A stretch of DNA of 64,000 nt from Rhodanobacteraceae bacterium. GTDB taxonomy: Bacteria; Pseudomonadota; Gammaproteobacteria; Xanthomonadales; SZUA-5. A model generated the notes under the pieces. That model was not told the origin of the DNA. It ran no database searches and saw nothing but the letters and a program-made list of their open reading frames with translations. The stretch covers positions 4,697-68,696 of the forward strand of contig JANNYA010000199.1 of assembly GCA_031409855.1 (NCBI GenBank). The letters run 5' to 3'. Positions within the stretch are counted from its first letter, which is position 1. The number at the start of each line of letters is the position of its first letter. Below are positions 7,575 through 57,347 of this stretch, piece after piece. A program made the translations under genes and the position numbers.

Positions 7575-9402
<1,828 letters not shown>

Positions 9403-9406
<4 letters not shown>

Positions 9407-10059
9407 ACGTTGTTCAAGAATTGCAGCGCGTAAATTGGCAAAATCCCGGGACACTATCGAGTGCTGCCCGAATAACGGTTGCGTTAGGTGCGTTGATATT
9501 GATTTGTGTCTTGGGTTGGTATTTTATGATCCAAGATAAAATCACTAACCACGATGCGCTTGAAGCAAATGAGCTTACTTTGCGAGCTGACTTTGCTACT
9601 CGCCAGAAGAAGGCGGCAAATCTTGAGCCTTTGAAAGAGCAGCTTATCACCATGAACGCAATGCTCGAGCAAATGCTGAAGCAGCTGCCAAGCAAGACTC
9701 AGTTAGCGGATTTGCTCGTAAATGTTTCTGAGCAAGCATTGTCCGCAGGAATACAGGTGAGATTGTTTCAACCGCAGACAGAGTCGGTCAAAGAGTTTTA
9801 TGCGGAAAAGCCGATACTTTTGCGGATGGTTGGCAACTACAACCAATTCGGGAACTTTGTTAGCGGTGTGGCAACCCTGCCCCGCGTAGTTATACTGACC
9901 ATGCATGATATCGCGATTAAACCAGCGACAGATCAAATGGATTTAGCGCCAGGATCTCTTATATTGGAAGGTACAGTAAAAACTTACCGATACTTGGATG
10001 AGGACGAAGCGGCCGCACAAGCGGCAGCTGAAGCCGGTGTTGTTGCGCCCGTGCGCTAG
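9403..10059 (+). CDS. pilO: Type IV pilus assembly protein PilO
   Basis: ATGA overlap with pilN. TM helix, coiled-coil and a C-terminal ferredoxin-like part; also supported by position in the operon. Confidence 0.9.
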
Positions 10060-10071
10060 GAGTATAGCCAA

Positions 10072-10617
10072 ATGAACAAAACAGAAGCGATTTGGAAAGC
10101 GTTGGGGCTTTGTATTTCGATCACCGCATTAGGCGCGTGCACAAAGCCGTTTTCTGACGTGCAGAAATACGTTGACGATACTCTGAAGTTAGATCCACCG
10201 TTACTCGAACAAATTCCTGCAATTAAGATATTTCCAATCCGAGAATATCCAATCGGTGGCTTGCGTGATCCGTTTGCTACCGAGTCGGACTTGTTAACGG
10301 AAGAAAGTCAAATTGAAACTCTCGCGAATGATCCTGATTGCCCAGACTTAACTCGGATACCAGAAACGCTGGAGGGTTTTCCATTGGACGCGCTGGACAT
10401 GGTTGGGACGATGGGGCAGGGCGTTGACTACTTCGGCCTTATCAAAGATCCAGAAGGTATCGTGCATCGGGTTCAAGTAAATAATTACATCGGCCAGAGT
10501 TATGGCCAGATCTTGTCAATCGCGGAAGACAAGATTGAGCTAGAAGAGCGCGTAAAAGACGGAAATGGTTGTGAGCGTAAGACGCAATCCATTTCCCTCG
10601 CTGACAATAATAACTAA
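10072..10617 (+). CDS. pilP: Type IV pilus assembly lipoprotein PilP
   Basis: Lipobox ITALGAC. Size and position between pilO and pilQ fit PilP. Confidence 0.85.
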   Translation: MNKTEAIWKALGLCISITALGACTKPFSDVQKYVDDTLKLDPPLLEQIPAIKIFPIREYPIGGLRDPFATESDLLTEESQIETLANDPDCPDLTRIPETLEGFPLDALDMVGTMGQGVDYFGLIKDPEGIVHRVQVNNYIGQSYGQILSIAEDKIELEERVKDGNGCERKTQSISLADNNN

Positions 10618-10630
10618 GGTAGGGCTTGAG

Positions 10631-12874
10631 ATGACTCGGCAACAACGGATAGCGACTATGACAACGAGAAAAATCCAAAGCACGCGCCGACCGCTATTTT
10701 TCGGTCTTGCGTTCGGTTTATTGCTCAGTACTGAGCTGCTAGCAGGAAGTATTCAAGGCATTGGCTTTACGCCTCTGCCGGGCGGAGAGGTGGAGGTTGC
10801 AATTAAACTTGACGGCCCGGCTGACCCCCAAATATTTTCAACTGAGAATCCGGCACGTATTGCACTGGATTTTGCTGACACGAAATTAGCTGTCAAAAAT
10901 CGTGCTGTGAACGTGGGAATGGGTGCGACTAAAACAATAACGGCAGTTGAAGCGGGGAATCGTTCGAGAGTCGTGATTGATCTATTTCGCGCATCTGGAT
11001 ACGAAACCCGAATGGAAGGCGACACACTCGTTGTAAGGGTTAGTAATGGCTTTTCAGGGGAAAGAGCTTCCAGTGGGCGCGCTACCAGCCAAACTCCCCC
11101 AGGCGTTACTCTGGCATCCGCAGCATCCGTGTTGGCGGTGAAAAACGTCGATTTTCGTCGAGGTAAGCAGGGCGAAGGCCGTATATTGATCGATTTTACC
11201 GGCGACGGTGCGACTGCTGACTTAAAGTCCGAAGGCGGCAAGTTGGTTGTTGATGTCTACAATGCTAAAGTGCCGCCCAACATCGCTCAGCGTATGGATG
11301 TCATTGACTTTGCAACCCCTGTGCAGTCCGTTGATGTGATGGCCCGTAGCAACGGTGCCCGTATTGAGATTGGCACGATTGGTGAGTTTGAACAACTGGC
11401 CTATCAAGCAGGGAATCAGTTTGTAGTCGAGATTTCACCAAAGCGCGCGGAGGAAAATAAGAAGAAGAACGCAAATGACCCTCCAGTTTATGCAGGTGCG
11501 CGTGCCACCTACAATTTCCAAGATATTCCTGTGCGATCAGTGCTCCAGTTAATTGCAGATGTGTCCGATTTGAACATTGTCGTTGCTGACACCGTGCAGG
11601 GAAGCGTGACCGTACGCATGATCAATGTGCCATGGGATCAAGCACTTGACATCGTGCTGCAATCGAAGGGTTTAGACAAACGTAGGAATGGAAATATCAT
11701 CTACGTTGCGCCAACCAAGGAAATCGCCGACCGTGAGCAAGCGCTAGAGCGCGCTCGACAGGCGCTTGAGAGCCGCACTTCCCTGGTAACCGATTTTATT
11801 CCAATTGGGTATGGTAAAGCCGAGGAAATCGCACAGTTGCTAACGGCAAAGGCCCTTACTAGTAATGCCGGAAAAGATCAAGGTTCTAATAGTGGCGCTG
11901 AAAAGGGTTTCCTGTCTGCGCGCGGGAGTATCTCGTTCGATGTTCGAACGAATACGCTTTTGGTTGTGGACGTTCCCTCCAAGGTGGCCGCAATCCGTGA
12001 ACTGGTGTTACGTCTTGACAAGCCCATTCAGCAAGTTCTGATTGAATCACGGATTGTTGTAGCTAATGATACTTATTCCAAAGAACTCGGAGTTCGTTTT
12101 GGTTTGTCGGGTGCCAAGGAAGATAGAAATGGCAATGTGCTAAGCGTCGGAGGCAATCTGTTCGCAACCGATGCAATGAGTAACGTCGCCATCGGAAATC
12201 GGTTCGCAGGAAATCCCTCTTCGCTTCCAGTAGGCGTCCAGGGGAGCCTCGGTTCAGGAATTGGTGTGCCAAGTTTAGTAGATCGACTTGGCGTCAATTT
12301 GGCGGTTGGAAATCCGGCTGGCTCTTTCGGTTTCACGCTCTTAGGTAATGATTTTCTATTAGACATGGAATTATCCGCCTTGGAGAACGAGGGACGCGGT
12401 GAAGTTATATCCAGCCCGCGGGTCATTACTGCGAGTTCACGGGAGGCGGTAATTAAGCAAACTAATGAGCTCCCCTATGCTGTGCTTACGCGAAATGATG
12501 ACGGTAGCGTAACGACCACAGCAGCCTTTAAGGAATTTAATTTACTATTGAAGGTTACCCCAACGATTTCGCCAGACCAAAGAATTTTTATGAATCTTGA
12601 AGTGACTCAAGAAACAGTCACTGGGTTTGGTCCTGGTGGCGCGCCAAGTGCACTGAGGCGGCTGATTACTACGGCGATATTGGTTGATAACGGACAAACT
12701 GTAGTCTTGGGGGGGATTCTTGAAAAACAGAGTAGAAACGACAAAACGCAAGTCCCATTTCTAGGCGATCTTCCGGGTTTGGGTACATTGTTTAAAACGA
12801 AAGCGCGTCGTGAATCACGCACCGAGTTGCTGATCTTCGTGACTCCCAAAATATTGCAAGATAGCTTGCGTTAA
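10631..12874 (+). CDS. pilQ: Type IV pilus secretin PilQ
   Basis: Start set at ATG 10631. Signal peptide; two AMIN-like repeats (ARIALDF.., GRILIDF..); secretin N-domain YNFQDIPVRSVLQLIADVSDLNIV; C-terminal secretin core VPFLGDLPGLGTLFK..ELLIFVTPKIL. Confidence 0.95.
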   Translation: MTRQQRIATMTTRKIQSTRRPLFFGLAFGLLLSTELLAGSIQGIGFTPLPGGEVEVAIKLDGPADPQIFSTENPARIALDFADTKLAVKNRAVNVGMGATKTITAVEAGNRSRVVIDLFRASGYETRMEGDTLVVRVSNGFSGERASSGRATSQTPPGVTLASAASVLAVKNVDFRRGKQGEGRILIDFTGDGATADLKSEGGKLVVDVYNAKVPPNIAQRMDVIDFATPVQSVDVMARSNGARIEIGTIGEFEQLAYQAGNQFVVEISPKRAEENKKKNANDPPVYAGARATYNFQDIPVRSVLQLIADVSDLNIVVADTVQGSVTVRMINVPWDQALDIVLQSKGLDKRRNGNIIYVAPTKEIADREQALERARQALESRTSLVTDFIPIGYGKAEEIAQLLTAKALTSNAGKDQGSNSGAEKGFLSARGSISFDVRTNTLLVVDVPSKVAAIRELVLRLDKPIQQVLIESRIVVANDTYSKELGVRFGLSGAKEDRNGNVLSVGGNLFATDAMSNVAIGNRFAGNPSSLPVGVQGSLGSGIGVPSLVDRLGVNLAVGNPAGSFGFTLLGNDFLLDMELSALENEGRGEVISSPRVITASSREAVIKQTNELPYAVLTRNDDGSVTTTAAFKEFNLLLKVTPTISPDQRIFMNLEVTQETVTGFGPGGAPSALRRLITTAILVDNGQTVVLGGILEKQSRNDKTQVPFLGDLPGLGTLFKTKARRESRTELLIFVTPKILQDSLR

Positions 12875-30177: not shown

Positions 30178-30470
30178 AAATTGCCTTTAACTAAACTGTA
30201 AAGGCCAGAACCTTACACAAAATTGTGCGGTGCGTCATAGCTGAAAGTCACTAAAAATGGCTTTTTTCGTAAATTGTTGCGGCAGCGCGGCATAATTGCT
30301 TTCGTTTGGCTCAGGCAAGAACATTAAATTGCGCCAACAAAGTTTCATGACCCTGATTCACTTTTCTCCCTGCCTTAATTTTCTTAGGTGTTTTCACTCA
30401 AGCATTCAACAGAGAAGCACGGCAGCAAAGTAAGCTCAGCGTTTTTATGCGCGGCAATAAAGGAAGCACC

Positions 30471-31409
30471 ATGACTCGAACGTATCATCTGTACTCCACG
30501 CTTGCCATCGCGCTGCTTTTAGCGGGTTGCCAAAACGCAGCGACACGCATTGCACCTGCTGCCACTGCGACCAAACCCGTGCCTGAAGTCGCGTATTACT
30601 GCGCCAACTGTGCGCTATTAGCCAGCCGTGAATCAGCGCCGCTACAGATATACGCTGCGGTGTTTAAATATACCTTCGATGTAGCTTCTGGCACCCTCCA
30701 AGGCATGAGCGCGTCGCAAGAGCCCTTGGATGCTGAGCGCACCGAGGACACAGCCTGTGCCGTGTCTGGCTCAAAAACTAATGACAGCGCGATGGATTTC
30801 CGACGTACCGGGATCTTCATCGTCGGCGGAACGCTGGTGTCGGTGGATTCGCCGAGCGTTGGCAAGATCGCGATAGAGCAGCTCCAGCCGGAGAGCGGTG
30901 CGGTACTCTTTGCCGGCAGCAAAAGCGATGCCGATGAATTTCAGCCTTGCGTCGGCGCAACGTTGGCCGACTCGCCAAGTTATGAAGCTGCGATGCACTT
31001 GCCACGCGATGCCGTTATTTCAATCCGGGTGGCGTCGCAATCGCGTCCGATCAAGCTGACATTGCCAGCGCAATTTAGCCCCTTCACCTATTTGCGCTAT
31101 CGTGCCGGCGCCGTGATACCGGTACCGGCGCGGCTAGCGACGCTCAGCTACGACATACAAAAGCAGCGTGTGGTGTTGAGCTATCGCAGCGTTTTTGCCA
31201 AGGATTCAGCCGTCAGAAAACTAGATTTGCGTGCAGTTTTTCCTGCGTCTTTGGGTGGCGCGCCGGGCGAATATGAATCTGTGGCACGTTTCACGGAGCG
31301 CTCGCAGGCCATTTTGGCCGATCTGGATCAATGCCCGCCATTTTTGGTGACAGGCGAACCCTGCGCCGATCCGAACCGTAAACCCAACCCAGGTATTTTT
31401 GCGCAGTAG
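30471..31409 (+). CDS. Hypothetical lipoprotein
   Basis: ATG 30471 is preceded by an AGGAAG SD sequence. Lipobox LLLAGC. Several Cys residues and no motif I can name. Confidence 0.6.
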   Translation: MTRTYHLYSTLAIALLLAGCQNAATRIAPAATATKPVPEVAYYCANCALLASRESAPLQIYAAVFKYTFDVASGTLQGMSASQEPLDAERTEDTACAVSGSKTNDSAMDFRRTGIFIVGGTLVSVDSPSVGKIAIEQLQPESGAVLFAGSKSDADEFQPCVGATLADSPSYEAAMHLPRDAVISIRVASQSRPIKLTLPAQFSPFTYLRYRAGAVIPVPARLATLSYDIQKQRVVLSYRSVFAKDSAVRKLDLRAVFPASLGGAPGEYESVARFTERSQAILADLDQCPPFLVTGEPCADPNRKPNPGIFAQ

Positions 31410-31460
31410 TGTTGAATTGTTGGGGCCATCATTTTGGGCCACCATTTCTTTGGTCAACTT

Positions 31461-31683
31461 GGGGTGCCATTCAAACTGAAGGGGAATCTCGGTAGTTTTC
31501 GCTGATTGGAATTTATTGGGGCGACAGCGCACTGAGTTCGTCATTCCCGCGTGCTTTTGGCGGGAATCCAGGGAGCCTGTTCTGGCGTTGCACCATTGCA
31601 ATTCGCTGTACTTTGCGCAAGTGCAGGCTGGATCCCCGACTAAAACATTCGGGGATGACGATCCTTCAGTTTAAATGGCACCC
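31461..31683. mobile_element. Nested MITE: 21-bp terminal inverted repeats with 8-bp target-site duplication, carrying an inner double-hairpin repeat (31539-31660)
   Basis: Inverted repeat (IR) gggtgccatt[c/t]aaactgaagg at 31462-31482 and, reverse-complemented, at 31663-31683 (1 mismatch). It is flanked by gtcaactt at 31453-31460 and 31684-31691. The inner element cgtcattcccgc..ggggatgacg recurs at 57240-57327. Confidence 0.8.
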
Positions 31684-31789
31684 GTCAACTTACAAAAACT
31701 TGCTTTGGCGCGCAGATTATTCGAGTAGCGCGCACCCGAATAGCCCGATAGACTCTTAAGCACGAAATCACTCTCGCTTTTATTCGCCT

Positions 31790-34138
31790 ATGGCCGCTCC
31801 GCCCGTCGAAATTCCCGGTTACCAACTGCACCGAGCGCTAGGCGAGGGCGGCATGGCCACGGTATTTTTGGCGACACAGCTATCCCTTGATCGCAAAGTT
31901 GCGATCAAGATTTTGCGTACTGAAAATGATGACGACCCGGAACGCACCGAGCGGCGTTTTTTGCGTGAAGGCCGAATCCTAGCGAAGATCACGCATCGCA
32001 ATGTTTGCGGTATTTATGACATCGCCAAAGTCGGCAATGTCGCCTACATCGCGATGGAGTTTTTAGATGGCGGTACGTTAGTAGACCGCCAACGCGATGG
32101 CATTGCCGTCGGCGAATCCATTGCGATTGTGGTGCAGGTGGCCAGCGCGCTGCAAGAAGCGCACAACCAGGGCATTGTGCACCGGGATTTGAAGCCTGCA
32201 AACGTGATGATGCGCGGCGGCAAAGTGCCGGTGCTGACCGATTTTGGTATCGCGCGCGAACTGGCTAGCCACCAAACCCGGATCACCACCGAAAACATGA
32301 TTGTCGGTACGCCGGTGTATATGAGCCCCGAGCAAGTCACGGGCGGTGAGATCGATGTGCGCAGCGATATTTATTCGCTCGGCATTATGTTTTATGAGCT
32401 GCTGGTCGGTAAAGCGCCGTATTTGGGCGATAACCCGATCCAAGTCTGCATGCAGCATTTGACCTCGCCGGTGCCGACGCTACCGCCTGAGTTAGACGAG
32501 ATCAACCCGGTATTGTCGCGCATGTTGGCGAAAAAGGCTGAGGATCGCTACGCCACGATGGCTGAATTCACGCACGCGCTGCGCGATGTGTTCGTGCATT
32601 CCATGCAGCTGCGCGCCAAGGCTGAGCTGGCGCCGAACCAACCTTGGACCGAACAGCTGCGGCAAATGGGGTTTTCTTTTGACACCATGCGCGATGGCGA
32701 GCTTAATGCCAAGCTGCGCCAACAGCAGGCGGCGCTGAATGCCAATCGGGAAGCGGATCGGGAAGTGGATCGGCGAGTTACCCCCTTACCCGCCGCTGCT
32801 GTCGAATTTGCTGCGCCGTCCAGCCGAAACGCAGCGGCTAACAAAAAGCCATGGCTGGCGATTGCGGCAGCGGCAGCGCTTGGTATCGGCGCGATTGGCT
32901 ACTTCGCATTGCGCGATAGCAGTGGCGGCAAGGCCGGGCGCTATCAACTGCAAGGCATGGCAGCGACCTTTGATGAACAAATCGCGCGCGACGCGCTGTT
33001 TGAACCCATTGACGACAACGCCGCGCAAACCATCACTGATATGCGTGATGTTAGCGATAAAAGCGCGATCACCAAAGCCCGTGTTGATAAGTTGCTTGAG
33101 GTCGTGAATCAAAAGTTAGACGCGTTGATCGTGGCGGAAAAATTTGATGACGCGCAAACGCTTTATACGCTGGCATTGAATGCGGAACTGTTTAGTCAAA
33201 AGCAAGCTGAAGCGCTGCAATTGCGCATTAGTAATAGCCGCAGTTTGATTGCCAACAAAGCCCTGATTGACGCGCAGCTGGCAACAGTTGCCGCCGCACT
33301 CAAGCAAAACTCAACGCCAACTGAGCTATTCACCGAGCTTGAGGCGCTACGCAAGCTGGTGGCAGCGGACGATGCACGCTTGGGCGCGATGGAGCGCGAT
33401 GTCGGTGTGAAAATTCTTGGACAGTACGAAATCGCGTTGCAAAATAATGATTTGGACGGTGCGCAAGTGATTTTGGCGGCGATGCTGGAAAAGCTGCCGC
33501 GTTTTCCCGAGCTGGCGCGCTATCAAAGTGAGCTGCGCGAACGACAAGCCAAATTAGGTGTGGCAAGCCGCATGGCGCGGATTAGATCTTTGATTGCCAG
33601 CACGCCGTTGAAACTCGATTCGATCACATTGGCCGCGACCGGCATTAGCGCGTTGGCGTTGAGCAATCCCTCGGATGAACTAGCCGCGTTGAAAGTGCAG
33701 CTTTTAACTGTCGCCAATGCCTCTGCATTGCGCAGCTTGGAACAAAACAACGATATCAAAGCGGCGCAGGCAACGATAAGTGCGCTGGGCGAATTTGCGC
33801 GTGATGATGCAGTCCGGCCGGCGCGCATGCGCATTTTGGCGGCTGTGGATGCCGCGCAATTCACGGAACGCAGCGGCACCGTTGTGATCGACACCGCGCC
33901 GTACAGCAAAGTGCTTGCAATTACCGATGCCAGCGGGAAAGCGATCCCGATTCCGGCACCGGGCGTCACGCCGCTGAGCCTGGTGTTGCTCGAAGGCCAA
34001 TACCGGGTCGAGCTAAGCAACGCCTTGGGTGAAAGTAAAAATGTCCAGGTATCGGTCGCCCGCAAAGTGACCACGGAATCGCCGCACATCTTGTACGCCT
34101 CAAAAAGCGATGACTACCTGCGCGAGGCTGGCTACTGA
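31790..34138 (+). CDS. Hanks-type Ser/Thr protein kinase, single-pass membrane, with helical-repeat + PEGA-like extracytoplasmic domain
   Basis: Contains GEGGMATVFLA, VAIK, HRDLKPAN (32180-32203), DFGIAR and SPEQ. TM helix PWLAIAAAAALGIGAIGYFAL. The C-terminus GTVVIDTAPYSKVLAI..LLEGQYRVELSN resembles a PEGA domain. Confidence 0.9.
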   Translation: MAAPPVEIPGYQLHRALGEGGMATVFLATQLSLDRKVAIKILRTENDDDPERTERRFLREGRILAKITHRNVCGIYDIAKVGNVAYIAMEFLDGGTLVDRQRDGIAVGESIAIVVQVASALQEAHNQGIVHRDLKPANVMMRGGKVPVLTDFGIARELASHQTRITTENMIVGTPVYMSPEQVTGGEIDVRSDIYSLGIMFYELLVGKAPYLGDNPIQVCMQHLTSPVPTLPPELDEINPVLSRMLAKKAEDRYATMAEFTHALRDVFVHSMQLRAKAELAPNQPWTEQLRQMGFSFDTMRDGELNAKLRQQQAALNANREADREVDRRVTPLPAAAVEFAAPSSRNAAANKKPWLAIAAAAALGIGAIGYFALRDSSGGKAGRYQLQGMAATFDEQIARDALFEPIDDNAAQTITDMRDVSDKSAITKARVDKLLEVVNQKLDALIVAEKFDDAQTLYTLALNAELFSQKQAEALQLRISNSRSLIANKALIDAQLATVAAALKQNSTPTELFTELEALRKLVAADDARLGAMERDVGVKILGQYEIALQNNDLDGAQVILAAMLEKLPRFPELARYQSELRERQAKLGVASRMARIRSLIASTPLKLDSITLAATGISALALSNPSDELAALKVQLLTVANASALRSLEQNNDIKAAQATISALGEFARDDAVRPARMRILAAVDAAQFTERSGTVVIDTAPYSKVLAITDASGKAIPIPAPGVTPLSLVLLEGQYRVELSNALGESKNVQVSVARKVTTESPHILYASKSDDYLREAGY

Positions 34139-36448: not shown

Positions 36449-36709
36449 CTAGCTAAGCAACTTATCGTAGTCTGCATGGCTGCCTATCCAAAACCACTGC
36501 ACGCCTTCTGACACGGGGACGCCAAGTGCGCGATAGCCTAGATTCACGCGAACACTTCGAAATGCACCGTTTTTGACTGGTTTGAAATGCAACGATGGAT
36601 GCGTTGGGTCTTGTTTAAGTAATTCGTGGCTTTCGCGTGCAATTTTCTGAACGTCGGCGGGAAGTGCATTGAAACAGTGCCAGAACTTTGCTGAAGCAAG
36701 ATGTTTCAA
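36449..36709 (-). CDS. RelE/ParE-superfamily toxin
   Basis: 86 aa. Contains FW..F..LP..VQ.., DPTHPSLHFKPV, SVRVNLGYRALG and WFWIGSHADYDKLL, which fit RelE/ParE-like toxins. 4-nt overlap with the upstream small ORF. Confidence 0.7.
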   Translation of the reverse strand: MKHLASAKFWHCFNALPADVQKIARESHELLKQDPTHPSLHFKPVKNGAFRSVRVNLGYRALGVPVSEGVQWFWIGSHADYDKLLS

Positions 36710-36906
36710 AGTTCAGTAGCTTTGCCATTTTGGTAGTCCGCTAACGCTTCAGCGGCAAGCGCGTCCAGTTTTCCTGTCACAGCATCCCGTTCAATCTGAG
36801 CATCCCAGGCTGATTCATTAAACTGTGCAAACCAGCGACGGAACTCAGCAAGCTCGGCATAAGGAAGCCTTTCAACGGCTTGTTCTATGGCGTAAACGGT
36901 GGTCAT
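36706..36906 (-). CDS. Cognate antitoxin (addiction-module component)
   Basis: 66 aa from MTTVYAIEQAVERLPYAELAEFRRWF. Acidic C-terminus. Overlaps the toxin start. Confidence 0.6.
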   Translation of the reverse strand: MTTVYAIEQAVERLPYAELAEFRRWFAQFNESAWDAQIERDAVTGKLDALAAEALADYQNGKATEL

Positions 36907-36998
36907 GGCTATGCCTCTAAGAAATTCCCTACAGATCATACTTCAACTGCATTTATCCGCTAGCTAAAATGCCGCAATTGGCAGATTTCTAAACCGGT

Positions 36999-44697: not shown

Positions 44698-44733
44698 CTT
44701 GTTTGCAGCGTGGTATCATATACAATACCAAAC

Positions 44734-45153
44734 ATGTCGAAGCCTGCTCTCATTTTAGATACCAATGTTCTAGTAGCAGGCTTGAAGTCGCGTCGCGGCG
44801 CATCATTCAAGCTTTTGTCCCTAATTGACAGTGGGTTGTTTACTTTGCATCTGTCAGTGCCTTTGGCCTTCGAGTACGAGGATGTACTAAATCGCTCGGA
44901 TCTAGGTATCTCAGTTCCAGACAGTGAAGCGCTATTAGATTTTATTTGCAGTATCGCTATCCATCAGCCAATTTTTTATCTATGGCGACCGTATTTGAAA
45001 GATGCAAAAGACGATATGGTTTTAGAAGCGGCAGTGGCAGCACAGGCAAGCCATATTGTTACGTTTAATACCAAAGACTTTGCGGGAATCGGGCGTTTTG
45101 GTATCCAAGCGCTCTGGCCTGCGGATTTTTTAATTCAACTCGGAGTCTCGTGA
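44734..45153 (+). CDS. PIN-domain toxin
   Basis: LILDTNVLVAG carries the first acidic residue; MVLEAAVAA and ..IVTFNTKDF follow. The size is typical of stand-alone PIN toxins. Confidence 0.75.
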   Translation: MSKPALILDTNVLVAGLKSRRGASFKLLSLIDSGLFTLHLSVPLAFEYEDVLNRSDLGISVPDSEALLDFICSIAIHQPIFYLWRPYLKDAKDDMVLEAAVAAQASHIVTFNTKDFAGIGRFGIQALWPADFLIQLGVS

Positions 45154-45181: not shown

Positions 45182-45433
45182 ATGAGCACCATGAGCTTGC
45201 GCTTACCAGAGTCAATTCATCAGCGTCTAAAAGAGTGGGCGCAAAAAGACGACACATCGATTAATCAATTTATAACTACCGCAGTCGCAGAAAAATTGGC
45301 CGCGCTATCCACGCTGGATTACCTGGCATCAAGGGCACAACGGGCGAATAAAGAAAATTTTGACGCCATTTTGGCGCGCGTCCCTGATGTCGAAGTGCCA
45401 CTAGAAGATGTTTGGCCAGCACTGCGACGGTAA
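45182..45433 (+). CDS. Ribbon-helix-helix antitoxin (Arc/CopG/HicB-like)
   Basis: MSLRLPESIHQRLKEWAQKDDTSINQFITTAVAEKL is a classic RHH N-terminus. It starts 28 nt after the PIN gene. Confidence 0.7.
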   Translation: MSTMSLRLPESIHQRLKEWAQKDDTSINQFITTAVAEKLAALSTLDYLASRAQRANKENFDAILARVPDVEVPLEDVWPALRR

Positions 45434-57227: not shown

Positions 57228-57239
57228 CTCTACTCTATT

Positions 57240-57327
57240 CGTCATTCCCGCATGCTTTTAGCGGGAATCCAGTTTGTTCAAAGCTTTATAGTCACTGGAT
57301 CCCCGATAAAAACACTCGGGGATGACG
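57240..57327. repeat. Double-hairpin MITE-like repeat (second copy of the 31539-31660 element)
   Basis: The left module cgtcattcccgcatgcttttagcgggaatccag and the right module ctggatccccgataaaaacactcggggatgacg match the first copy with 2 and 3 mismatches respectively. The central spacer differs (23 vs 56 nt). Confidence 0.85.
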
Positions 57328-57347
57328 AGTTGCTGGGTGGGTGGTAG

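Follow-up and report, generated by a model that had tools for sequence, protein, structure and literature searches.

A composite repeat between a lipoprotein gene and a kinase gene

The window analysed here is the whole 64,000-nucleotide stretch taken from contig JANNYA010000199.1 (assembly GCA_031409855.1, Rhodanobacteraceae bacterium). Between an orphan lipoprotein gene and a Ser/Thr protein kinase gene it contains a composite repeat in which two short hairpin modules, a doublet, lie within a pair of longer inverted repeats (IRs), and these in turn lie between identical octamers. The initial annotation of this region described one miniature inverted-repeat transposable element (MITE) nested in another, in the promoter region of the kinase gene. 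We consider it on balance probable that two unrelated repeats are combined here, an outer non-autonomous element whose insertion was catalysed by a transposase supplied in trans, and a doublet of hairpins of the Neisseria Transformation Sequence (NTS)/Ssn-related motif (SRM) type that then landed 1 nt inside its right end. The features of the region, together with a second hairpin doublet located elsewhere in the window, are as follows.

30318..31699 (+/-10 nt), no strand: strain-specific block of ~1.38 kb with the orphan lipoprotein gene and the composite; not in three relatives
30471..31409, plus strand: orphan lipoprotein gene, lipobox LLAGC
31453..31460, no strand: left direct repeat GTCAACTT, a putative target-site duplication
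31462..31482, plus strand: IR-L, the outer left terminal inverted repeat, GGGTGCCATTCAAACTGAAGG; no match in the window besides its partner
31483..31537, no strand: internal segment of the outer element, 55 nt; no detectable structure of its own (z = -0.84) and no homolog
31538..31571, plus strand: NTS/SRM-type hairpin module of the L subtype (T-CGTCAT, TCCCGC stem, 9-nt loop, GCGGGAAT, CCAG); matches the published degenerate SRM motif
31572..31627, no strand: variable spacer between the hairpin modules, 56 nt; unrelated to the 22-nt spacer of the second doublet
31628..31661, minus strand: NTS/SRM-like hairpin module of the R subtype (CGTCAT-CCCCGA ... TCGGGGAT-CCAG on the minus strand); strict SRM regular expression not matched
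31663..31683, minus strand: IR-R, the outer right terminal inverted repeat, GGGTGCCATTTAAACTGAAGG on the minus strand
31684..31691, no strand: right direct repeat GTCAACTT
31790..34138, plus strand: Ser/Thr protein kinase gene, downstream of the composite
57239..57328, no strand: further SRM doublet, also head-outward, in which 22 nt of spacer part the L from the R module; located between an alpha-2-macroglobulin-like gene and pbpC

The inner doublet is a variant of the NTS/SRM hairpin repeats

The inner double hairpin spans 124 nt (31538-31661; given initially as 122 nt) and consists of two arms, 31538-31571 and 31628-31661, that are mutually inverted and complementary at 27 of 34 positions. 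Each arm has a perfect 8-bp stem of its own (ATTCCCGC/GCGGGAAT in the left arm versus ATCCCCGA/TCGGGGAT in the right), and both differences between the stems are compensatory; the mutually inverted modules with separate stems and the compensatory changes had been recognised in the initial annotation and are confirmed here. The pattern CGTCATYCCCG...CGGGRAT occurs four times in the window, in the two head-outward doublets at 31538-31661 and 57239-57328, and there are thus four modules in two intergenic doublets within 64 kb. The L modules (31538-31571 and 57239-57272) are identical at 32 of 34 positions and the R modules (31628-31661 and 57295-57328) at 31 of 34, with L and R modules sharing 27-28 of 34, and the spacers of the two doublets (56 and 22 nt) are unrelated. 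All four modules contain a CGTCAT head, an 8-bp stem, a T-rich 9-nt loop (RTGYTTTWR) and a CCAG tail, and all four are predicted to fold as single-stranded DNA (ssDNA) hairpins with an 8-bp stem at -7.6 to -8.1 kcal/mol (z = -2.6 to -4.6). The inner doublet shows no target-site duplication of its own.

The NTS, CGTCATTCCCGCGMAVGCGGGAATCYRG, encompasses the dRS3 repeat of Neisseria, and the study that described it also defined the degenerate SRM, which has an HGTCWY head, a palindromic stem and a C-containing tail and is present across many bacteria (PMC11893778; Nat Commun 2025;16:2388). The GIY-YIG nuclease SsnA acts on the NTS hairpin only when the DNA is single-stranded, binding it and cleaving immediately 5' of it; the NTS/SRM repeats are multi-copy and nearly always intergenic, the cd10448 GIY-YIG Ssn gene is often flanked by them, and transposition of the Ssn-associated repeats was put forward as a hypothesis (PMC11893778). 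In our window the published SRM regular expression matches the L modules (31539-31571 and 57240-57272) and nothing else, a count of two that is not above the shuffle background (~0.9 expected per shuffle, and two or more in 8 of 30 shuffles). The L modules also agree with the NTS in head, stem and tail (CGTCATTCCCGC...GCGGGAATCCAG).

The modules share with the Neisseria NTS/SRM repeats (PMC11893778) an oriented hairpin, the CGTCAT head, the ATTCCCGC/GCGGGAAT stem and a C-CAG tail, the match of the L modules to the SRM motif, and an intergenic, multi-copy distribution, often as inverted pairs around a variable segment. They differ in the loop, which is 9 nt and T-rich (RTGYTTTWR) here and a 4-nt GMAV in the NTS, in the covaried stem of the R modules (ATCCCCGA/TCGGGGAT), which falls outside the strict regular expression, and in the host, which is an uncultured lineage with its nearest named relatives in the Xanthomonadales/Lysobacterales and not in Neisseria, and no ssn gene is seen in the window.

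Neisseria intergenic mosaic elements (NIMEs) are RS segments flanked by dRS3. As in these, an inverted hairpin pair surrounds a variable spacer of 20-60 nt in our doublets, and contigs with Neisseria uptake sequences carry head-outward doublets with spacers of about 56-57 nt; in contrast to NIMEs, however, the doublets here are isolated and do not form arrays, and the sequence ATTCCC-N13-GGGAAT departs from the strict dRS3 consensus (ATTCCC-N8-GGGAAT). REPIN and BIME units are doublets of REP sequences mobilised by RAYT Y1 transposases, and the REP head is GTAG. The similarities to these are the pairing, in inverted orientation, of two different hairpin subtypes, much like the Y and Z REPs, an extragenic location at the 3' ends of genes, the lack of a target duplication, and persistence at orthologous sites in relatives; the differences are the head (CGTCAT, not GTAG), the class of the associated enzyme (a GIY-YIG nuclease and not a Y1 transposase) and the absence of a RAYT among the window ORFs tested.

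Judged by these features, the inner element is a 9-nt-loop variant of the known dispersed NTS/SRM family of hairpin repeats (Neisseria dRS3/NTS), and not an uncharacterised MITE; by analogy, its architecture is like that of a minimal NIME or REPIN. Of the proposal that one non-autonomous element had inserted into another, the composite of two unrelated systems and the footprint of an outer element stand, and what does not is the treatment of the inner part as an anonymous MITE. The inner family is already published, and the 9-nt-loop variant with its covarying L and R subtypes is a minor extension of it. The main value of the assignment is in annotation, placing the double hairpin in a recently defined family and recording a 9-nt-loop variant outside Neisseria.

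Several spurious open reading frames (ORFs) cross the hairpin modules (31221-31601 and 31513-31620 on the minus strand, 31516-31674 and 31613-31759 on the plus strand). Their translations hold peptides such as LDSRQKHAGMT, PPKARGNDE and LDPRLKHSGMT, a recurrent junk-protein signature of this hairpin-repeat family in automated annotation, and the hairpin repeats thus explain the ORFs of the region with peptides of the ...AGMT and ...RGNDE types.

The hairpin modules are widely dispersed. A scan of IMG/VR with the core pattern matched at least 120 stretches of DNA, and among the 120 listed head-outward was the commonest arrangement of neighbouring modules (48 of 109 adjacent pairs). The 80 stretches that were profiled range in GC content from 35 to 72 %, and some of them bear Neisseria DNA uptake sequences. 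Doublets with the identical 9-nt-loop module type are present in the contigs L144, L185 and L186. At the site between the alpha-2-macroglobulin-like gene and pbpC, CGTCAT...ATGACG hairpins are found both in the window and in two relatives (PbpC 88-89 % identical), and the stems and the numbers of modules differ: the window has ATTCCCGC/ATCCCCGA, L053 (2533-2670) has three ATCCCCGC-type modules, and L054 (5985-6063) has ATTGCGAGC/GCGAAGCAAT. Either the elements have persisted here over a long time and their stems have covaried, or the site is a hot spot at which they have been replaced repeatedly.

The second doublet at 57239-57328 and the doublets in other contigs support the view that the inner part of the composite is an independent dispersed repeat. 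They also bear on an unlikely alternative, in which the whole 223 bp between the octamers, SRM doublet included, is a single MITE family whose founder already had the doublet, and which could have originated from an insertion sequence (IS) that an SRM doublet had entered or that had captured one. The doublet accounts for 55 % of the element and sits only 1 nt away from IR-R, and an outer copy lacking it has never been seen, leaving the order of nesting unproven. However, the doublet family exists without the outer repeats, at 57239-57328 as well as in L053, L054, L144, L185 and L186, and the strongly asymmetric position of the doublet suits a secondary insertion better than a designed core.

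The outer inverted repeats and the flanking octamers

The outer IRs (31462-31482 and 31663-31683) are 21 nt long and match at 20 of 21 positions, as had been annotated, with GGGTGCCATTCAAACTGAAGG as the left arm. The GTCAACTT octamers at 31453-31460 and 31684-31691 are identical; both had been described as abutting the IRs, and this holds for the right octamer, which adjoins IR-R directly, but not for the left, which is parted from IR-L by one base (G31461). Depending on whether this base is counted in, the duplication is 9 bp long with a single mismatch (GTCAACTTG / GTCAACTTA) or 8 bp long with a stray base beside it, and the chance of an identical 8-mer at offsets of +/-1 on each side is ~6e-5 by analytic estimate.

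The full element is 223 bp long, or ~99 bp without the doublet (31461/2-31537 plus 31662-31683), and the ORFs within it are junk only, so that it is a small, non-coding element. An autonomous partner would be expected to have GGGGTGCCATTCAAAC-like ends, and the empty site is predicted to read ...CATTTCTTTGGTCAACTTACAAAAACTTGC. Only 1 nt separates the doublet from IR-R, against 55 nt on the side of IR-L, an asymmetry that the initial annotation had also reported, and the entire 239-nt composite (31453-31691) has a predicted fold of -111 kcal/mol (z = -7.6). Even when as many as 3 mismatches are allowed, the outer 21-mer matches nowhere else in the window (shuffles predict 0 matches), and a search of the 64-kb window for degenerate copies of the outer IR with up to 5 edits gave none above the shuffle background.

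Some bacterial MITEs derive from IS elements with DDE transposases that duplicate 8-9 bp of target, including derivatives of IS1, IS6, IS256, ISL3, IS1595 and IS66. The outer element has in common with these ~20-bp terminal inverted repeats (TIRs) that start with GG(G), an 8-bp direct duplication, a length of less than 250 bp, and a non-coding, intergenic character, and it differs from them in having no family assignment and in the 1-nt asymmetry at its left junction; moreover, neither a second copy nor an autonomous partner with matching ends was found. The MITE traits shown by the outer element are therefore its terminal inverted repeats, its flanking duplication and its small non-coding size, and we regard the TIRs and the duplication, as read from the sequence, as a credible footprint of a MITE-like, transposase-mediated insertion.

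Tandem repeats of 12-14 nt, GGGGCCATCATTTT and GGGCCACCATTTC, are located directly upstream of the left octamer (31422-31448), with two copies in the window and three in a variant strain (L184, about 1195-1250); they resemble the IR-L terminus (GGGGTGCCATTC). An attC site or integron cassette was also considered for this region and rejected, as the core-like octamers are direct and not inverted (RYYYAAC ... GTTRRRY is expected) and there is no integrase among the window ORFs tested.

A strain-specific block upstream of the kinase gene

The composite begins 43 nt past the stop codon of the lipoprotein gene, at the 3' end of the strain-specific block. In three relatives, whose kinases are 97, 91 and 87 % identical to that of the window, a short-chain dehydrogenase (SDR) gene adjoins the kinase gene at a distance of 220-280 bp, and neither the lipoprotein gene nor the outer repeat nor an SRM module is present at this dehydrogenase-kinase locus. 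Homology to the relatives returns after the right octamer, apparently at ~31700 and unambiguously from AGCCCGATAGACT at 31741, and the conserved sequence just upstream of the kinase gene is therefore intact and located downstream of the element. Short matches of the doublet spacer to the intergenic DNA of the relatives (tttgcgca and gttctggcg) were discounted as products of gap-permissive alignment, homology that resumes after ~31700 being the better explanation.

The gap of 106 nt between the end of IR-R and the kinase ATG (31790) is as initially reported, but to speak of the kinase promoter region is misleading: the element follows an orphan lipoprotein gene within a strain-specific block, and the conserved sequence proximal to the kinase gene is undisturbed. 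A scan for promoters and terminators gave nothing above shuffle expectation, and the sole promoter-like match in the vicinity overlaps the left octamer on the minus strand, in a count at chance level. Within the element there is no promoter or terminator consensus on the kinase strand, a result to be set against the earlier suggestion that the composite could supply or disrupt promoter and regulatory signals. The region upstream of the kinase gene has been remodelled by the strain-specific block and not by a conserved regulatory element.

These comparisons effectively refute a further alternative, that the composite is a conserved structured cis-regulatory RNA or DNA element controlling the kinase gene. 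It would account for the very stable fold (z = -7.6) and the position upstream of that gene; however, the repeat arms fully account for the stability, no Rfam family matches, and the element is absent from all three orthologous loci, including the one whose kinase is 97 % identical. It is this absence from the orthologous loci that rules out a conserved regulatory element. The same comparison, suggested initially as a check, yields no empty site at the level of the element, as the three loci are without the whole block.

The lipoprotein belongs to no Pfam family, and a search of 5.8e9 proteins recovered itself and two distant homologs (38-40 % identity), whose loci (L181-L183) have an unrelated, high-GC context without the outer repeat or an SRM. 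The GC content of the block (0.538) equals the window average, and its composition gives no sign of a foreign origin. No record matches the kinase protein exactly; its nearest homologs are on uncultured metagenome contigs, and more distant homologs of the kinase and of PbpC are labelled Xanthomonadales, Lysobacterales or Dokdonella.

The block ends on the right (~31692-31699) where the right octamer lies, and the outer IRs could be the surviving end of a larger mobile unit that moved the entire ~1.38-kb lipoprotein block. This is very unlikely: near 30318, where the block begins on the left, neither a counterpart of the repeat nor a duplication is present, even with 5 errors allowed, the direct repeats flank the 223-bp unit alone, and the block contains no recombinase or transposase.

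In the intergenic region beside the dehydrogenase gene there is, in all four genomes, a conserved palindrome, TTACACAA(A/T)ATTGTG, followed by GGTGCGTCATAG (window 30210-30226; L018 about 9806-9822; L019 and L020), and this is probably an operator for divergent promoters. The 1.38-kb block now parts the palindrome from the kinase gene in the window.

Origin of the composite

In the order of events that we favour, a transposase supplied in trans would have made staggered cuts of 8-9 bp and pasted in a small non-coding element downstream of the orphan lipoprotein gene, within the ~1.38-kb block that splits the ancestral dehydrogenase-kinase intergenic region. An SRM doublet would later have inserted inside this outer element; such doublets appear to be a dispersed, self-spreading class, comparable to NIME and REPIN units, that makes no target duplication. 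The composite probably has a near-neutral effect at present. The lipoprotein and kinase genes run in the same direction, and the long foldback of the composite between them could hinder read-through and shield the lipoprotein mRNA at its 3' end, by analogy with REP and BIME sequences. Should the genome have a gene for an Ssn-type nuclease, the modules would also turn ssDNA from this locus into a target of that enzyme.

Several observations weigh against this account. The outer element is known from one copy alone, and searches with exact IR sequences returned hits at chance level: 17 unrelated singletons for a 19-mer in the GTDB representative genomes (596 Gb), 31 singletons for a 19-mer in JGI metagenomes, and 4 singletons for an 18-mer in IMG/VR, in which nothing beyond the seeded stretch matched. 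The outer element is likewise unmatched by blastn in the plasmid collection, and a literature search with the outer repeat string returned nothing relevant. No outer copy without the doublet has been seen, which leaves the nesting order unproven, and the relatives provide no empty site, as the block is missing from them in its entirety. At the left junction, octamer and IR-L do not adjoin but are 1 nt apart. For the inner doublet, the R modules have the head, tail and geometry of the L modules yet fail the strict published SRM regular expression, and a six-frame scan of the whole window for GIY-YIG motifs found nothing, so there is no ssn gene in the window. To these may be added the ambiguity of the contig ends described below.

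The IR scans used exact 18-mers and 19-mers, with which diverged ends would be missed, and the source genome is outside those collections, as there is no locus with both arms. Among the hits in the GTDB genomes and JGI metagenomes, none has an inverted partner near the IR match and none extends past the seed. The longest IR matches (22-25 nt, in L045 and L031) were dismissed as chance; they lie inside overlapping ORFs of 135-146 aa and are without an inverted partner. An autonomous element with matching ends was not found in the GTDB genomes, JGI metagenomes or IMG/VR (exact 18/19-mers) or in the plasmids, and Rfam contains no relevant family for the composite. In agreement with the initial annotation, no transposase is present among the 36 window ORFs scanned with Pfam, nor is a RAYT or a GIY-YIG domain; some large ORFs beyond these 36 were identified solely through synteny with annotated relatives. 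Neither a Y1 transposase domain nor an integrase is present among the window ORFs tested. The inner module, then, recurs at 57239-57328 and in doublets elsewhere, and no copy of the outer IR was found. Because neither a partner transposase nor a second copy was found, the outer element is best treated as an unclassified orphan: the TIRs, duplication and small size of the MITE that had been proposed hold, and neither a further copy nor an autonomous partner came to light in the collections searched.

Three short-read contigs from the Logan assemblies, two at this locus and one at the second doublet, provide further information. L052 (SRR20217180) is identical to window 30254-31489 and ends 28 nt into IR-L. 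L184, an independent contig (SRR20217185), carries a diverged version of this locus, with 92 % identity over the lipoprotein gene, and ends at the window equivalent of 31491, 30 nt into IR-L; its last 59 nt (flank and repeat start) are identical to window 31433-31491 at 59 of 59 positions. L180 (SRR20217180) starts at 57245, inside an SRM module of the second doublet, a sequence known to be repeated. Both L052 and L180 are 100 % identical to the window, and sample SRR20217180 probably contains the source population. Logan assemblies use k = 31. Given this value, the ends correspond to a graph in-branch at 31460-31462, at the very start of IR-L, or to an out-branch just after 31489/31491, which suggests repetition or structural polymorphism of the element in the SRR20217180 and SRR20217185 populations. 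The ends are nonetheless ambiguous, as a repeat boundary, an internal polymorphism and a hairpin-related drop in coverage would all fit.

The same contigs figure on both sides of another alternative, in which there was no transposon: the outer IR would be a locus-specific stem of the lipoprotein block, such as a 3' stabiliser or terminator-like hairpin, with the SRM doublet arriving later in its loop and the octamers arising by chance, slippage or other repair. In L184 the left junction is fully conserved (59/59) despite 8 % divergence over the lipoprotein gene, which points to constraint or to exchange in the recent past; moreover, the outer repeat is single-copy everywhere searched, it lies 43 nt past the lipoprotein stop codon, where 3' hairpins are common, and the tandem GGGCCAYCATTT repeats just upstream resemble the IR-L terminus. 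We nevertheless consider this alternative improbable, as an identical 8-mer directly outside both arms has a chance of ~6e-5, a 55-nt loop on a 21-bp stem without a T-tract is not terminator-like and no terminator was called, and both contigs end at the start of the repeat, which suggests repetition or instability.

If the composite did arise by insertion of the doublet into an older outer element, the outer frame would serve as a natural insertion trap. Should other outer copies lack the doublet, the locus would be direct evidence that SRM doublets transpose as discrete units without target duplication, a reading that we regard as doubtful. Such transposition would be REPIN-like and presumably driven by Ssn GIY-YIG nucleases, and the outer element would represent a MITE/IS family not described before, from an uncultured Xanthomonadales-like lineage. 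Beyond annotation, the locus is of interest only in that it may naturally document the entry of an SRM doublet into a frame that can be dated, and it bears on how the Ssn-associated repeats spread.

Other features of the window

A type IV pilus assembly cluster is located at 7617-12874, with PilM, PilN, PilO and PilP identified by Pfam, and PilQ is presumed, from position alone, to be the product of an adjoining 769-aa ORF (10565-12874). NTS/Ssn systems modulate natural transformation in Neisseria, and the pil cluster of the window is consistent with DNA uptake but is not evidence for it.

The window also encodes toxin-antitoxin-like pairs. HicA (2761-2946) has a HicB-like/HTH protein (2342-2764) as its partner, a small ORF adjoins a ParE-like toxin (36449-36709; region 36449-36939), and a PIN_3 protein (44710-45153) lies beside a HicB/RHH-like ORF (45182-45433).

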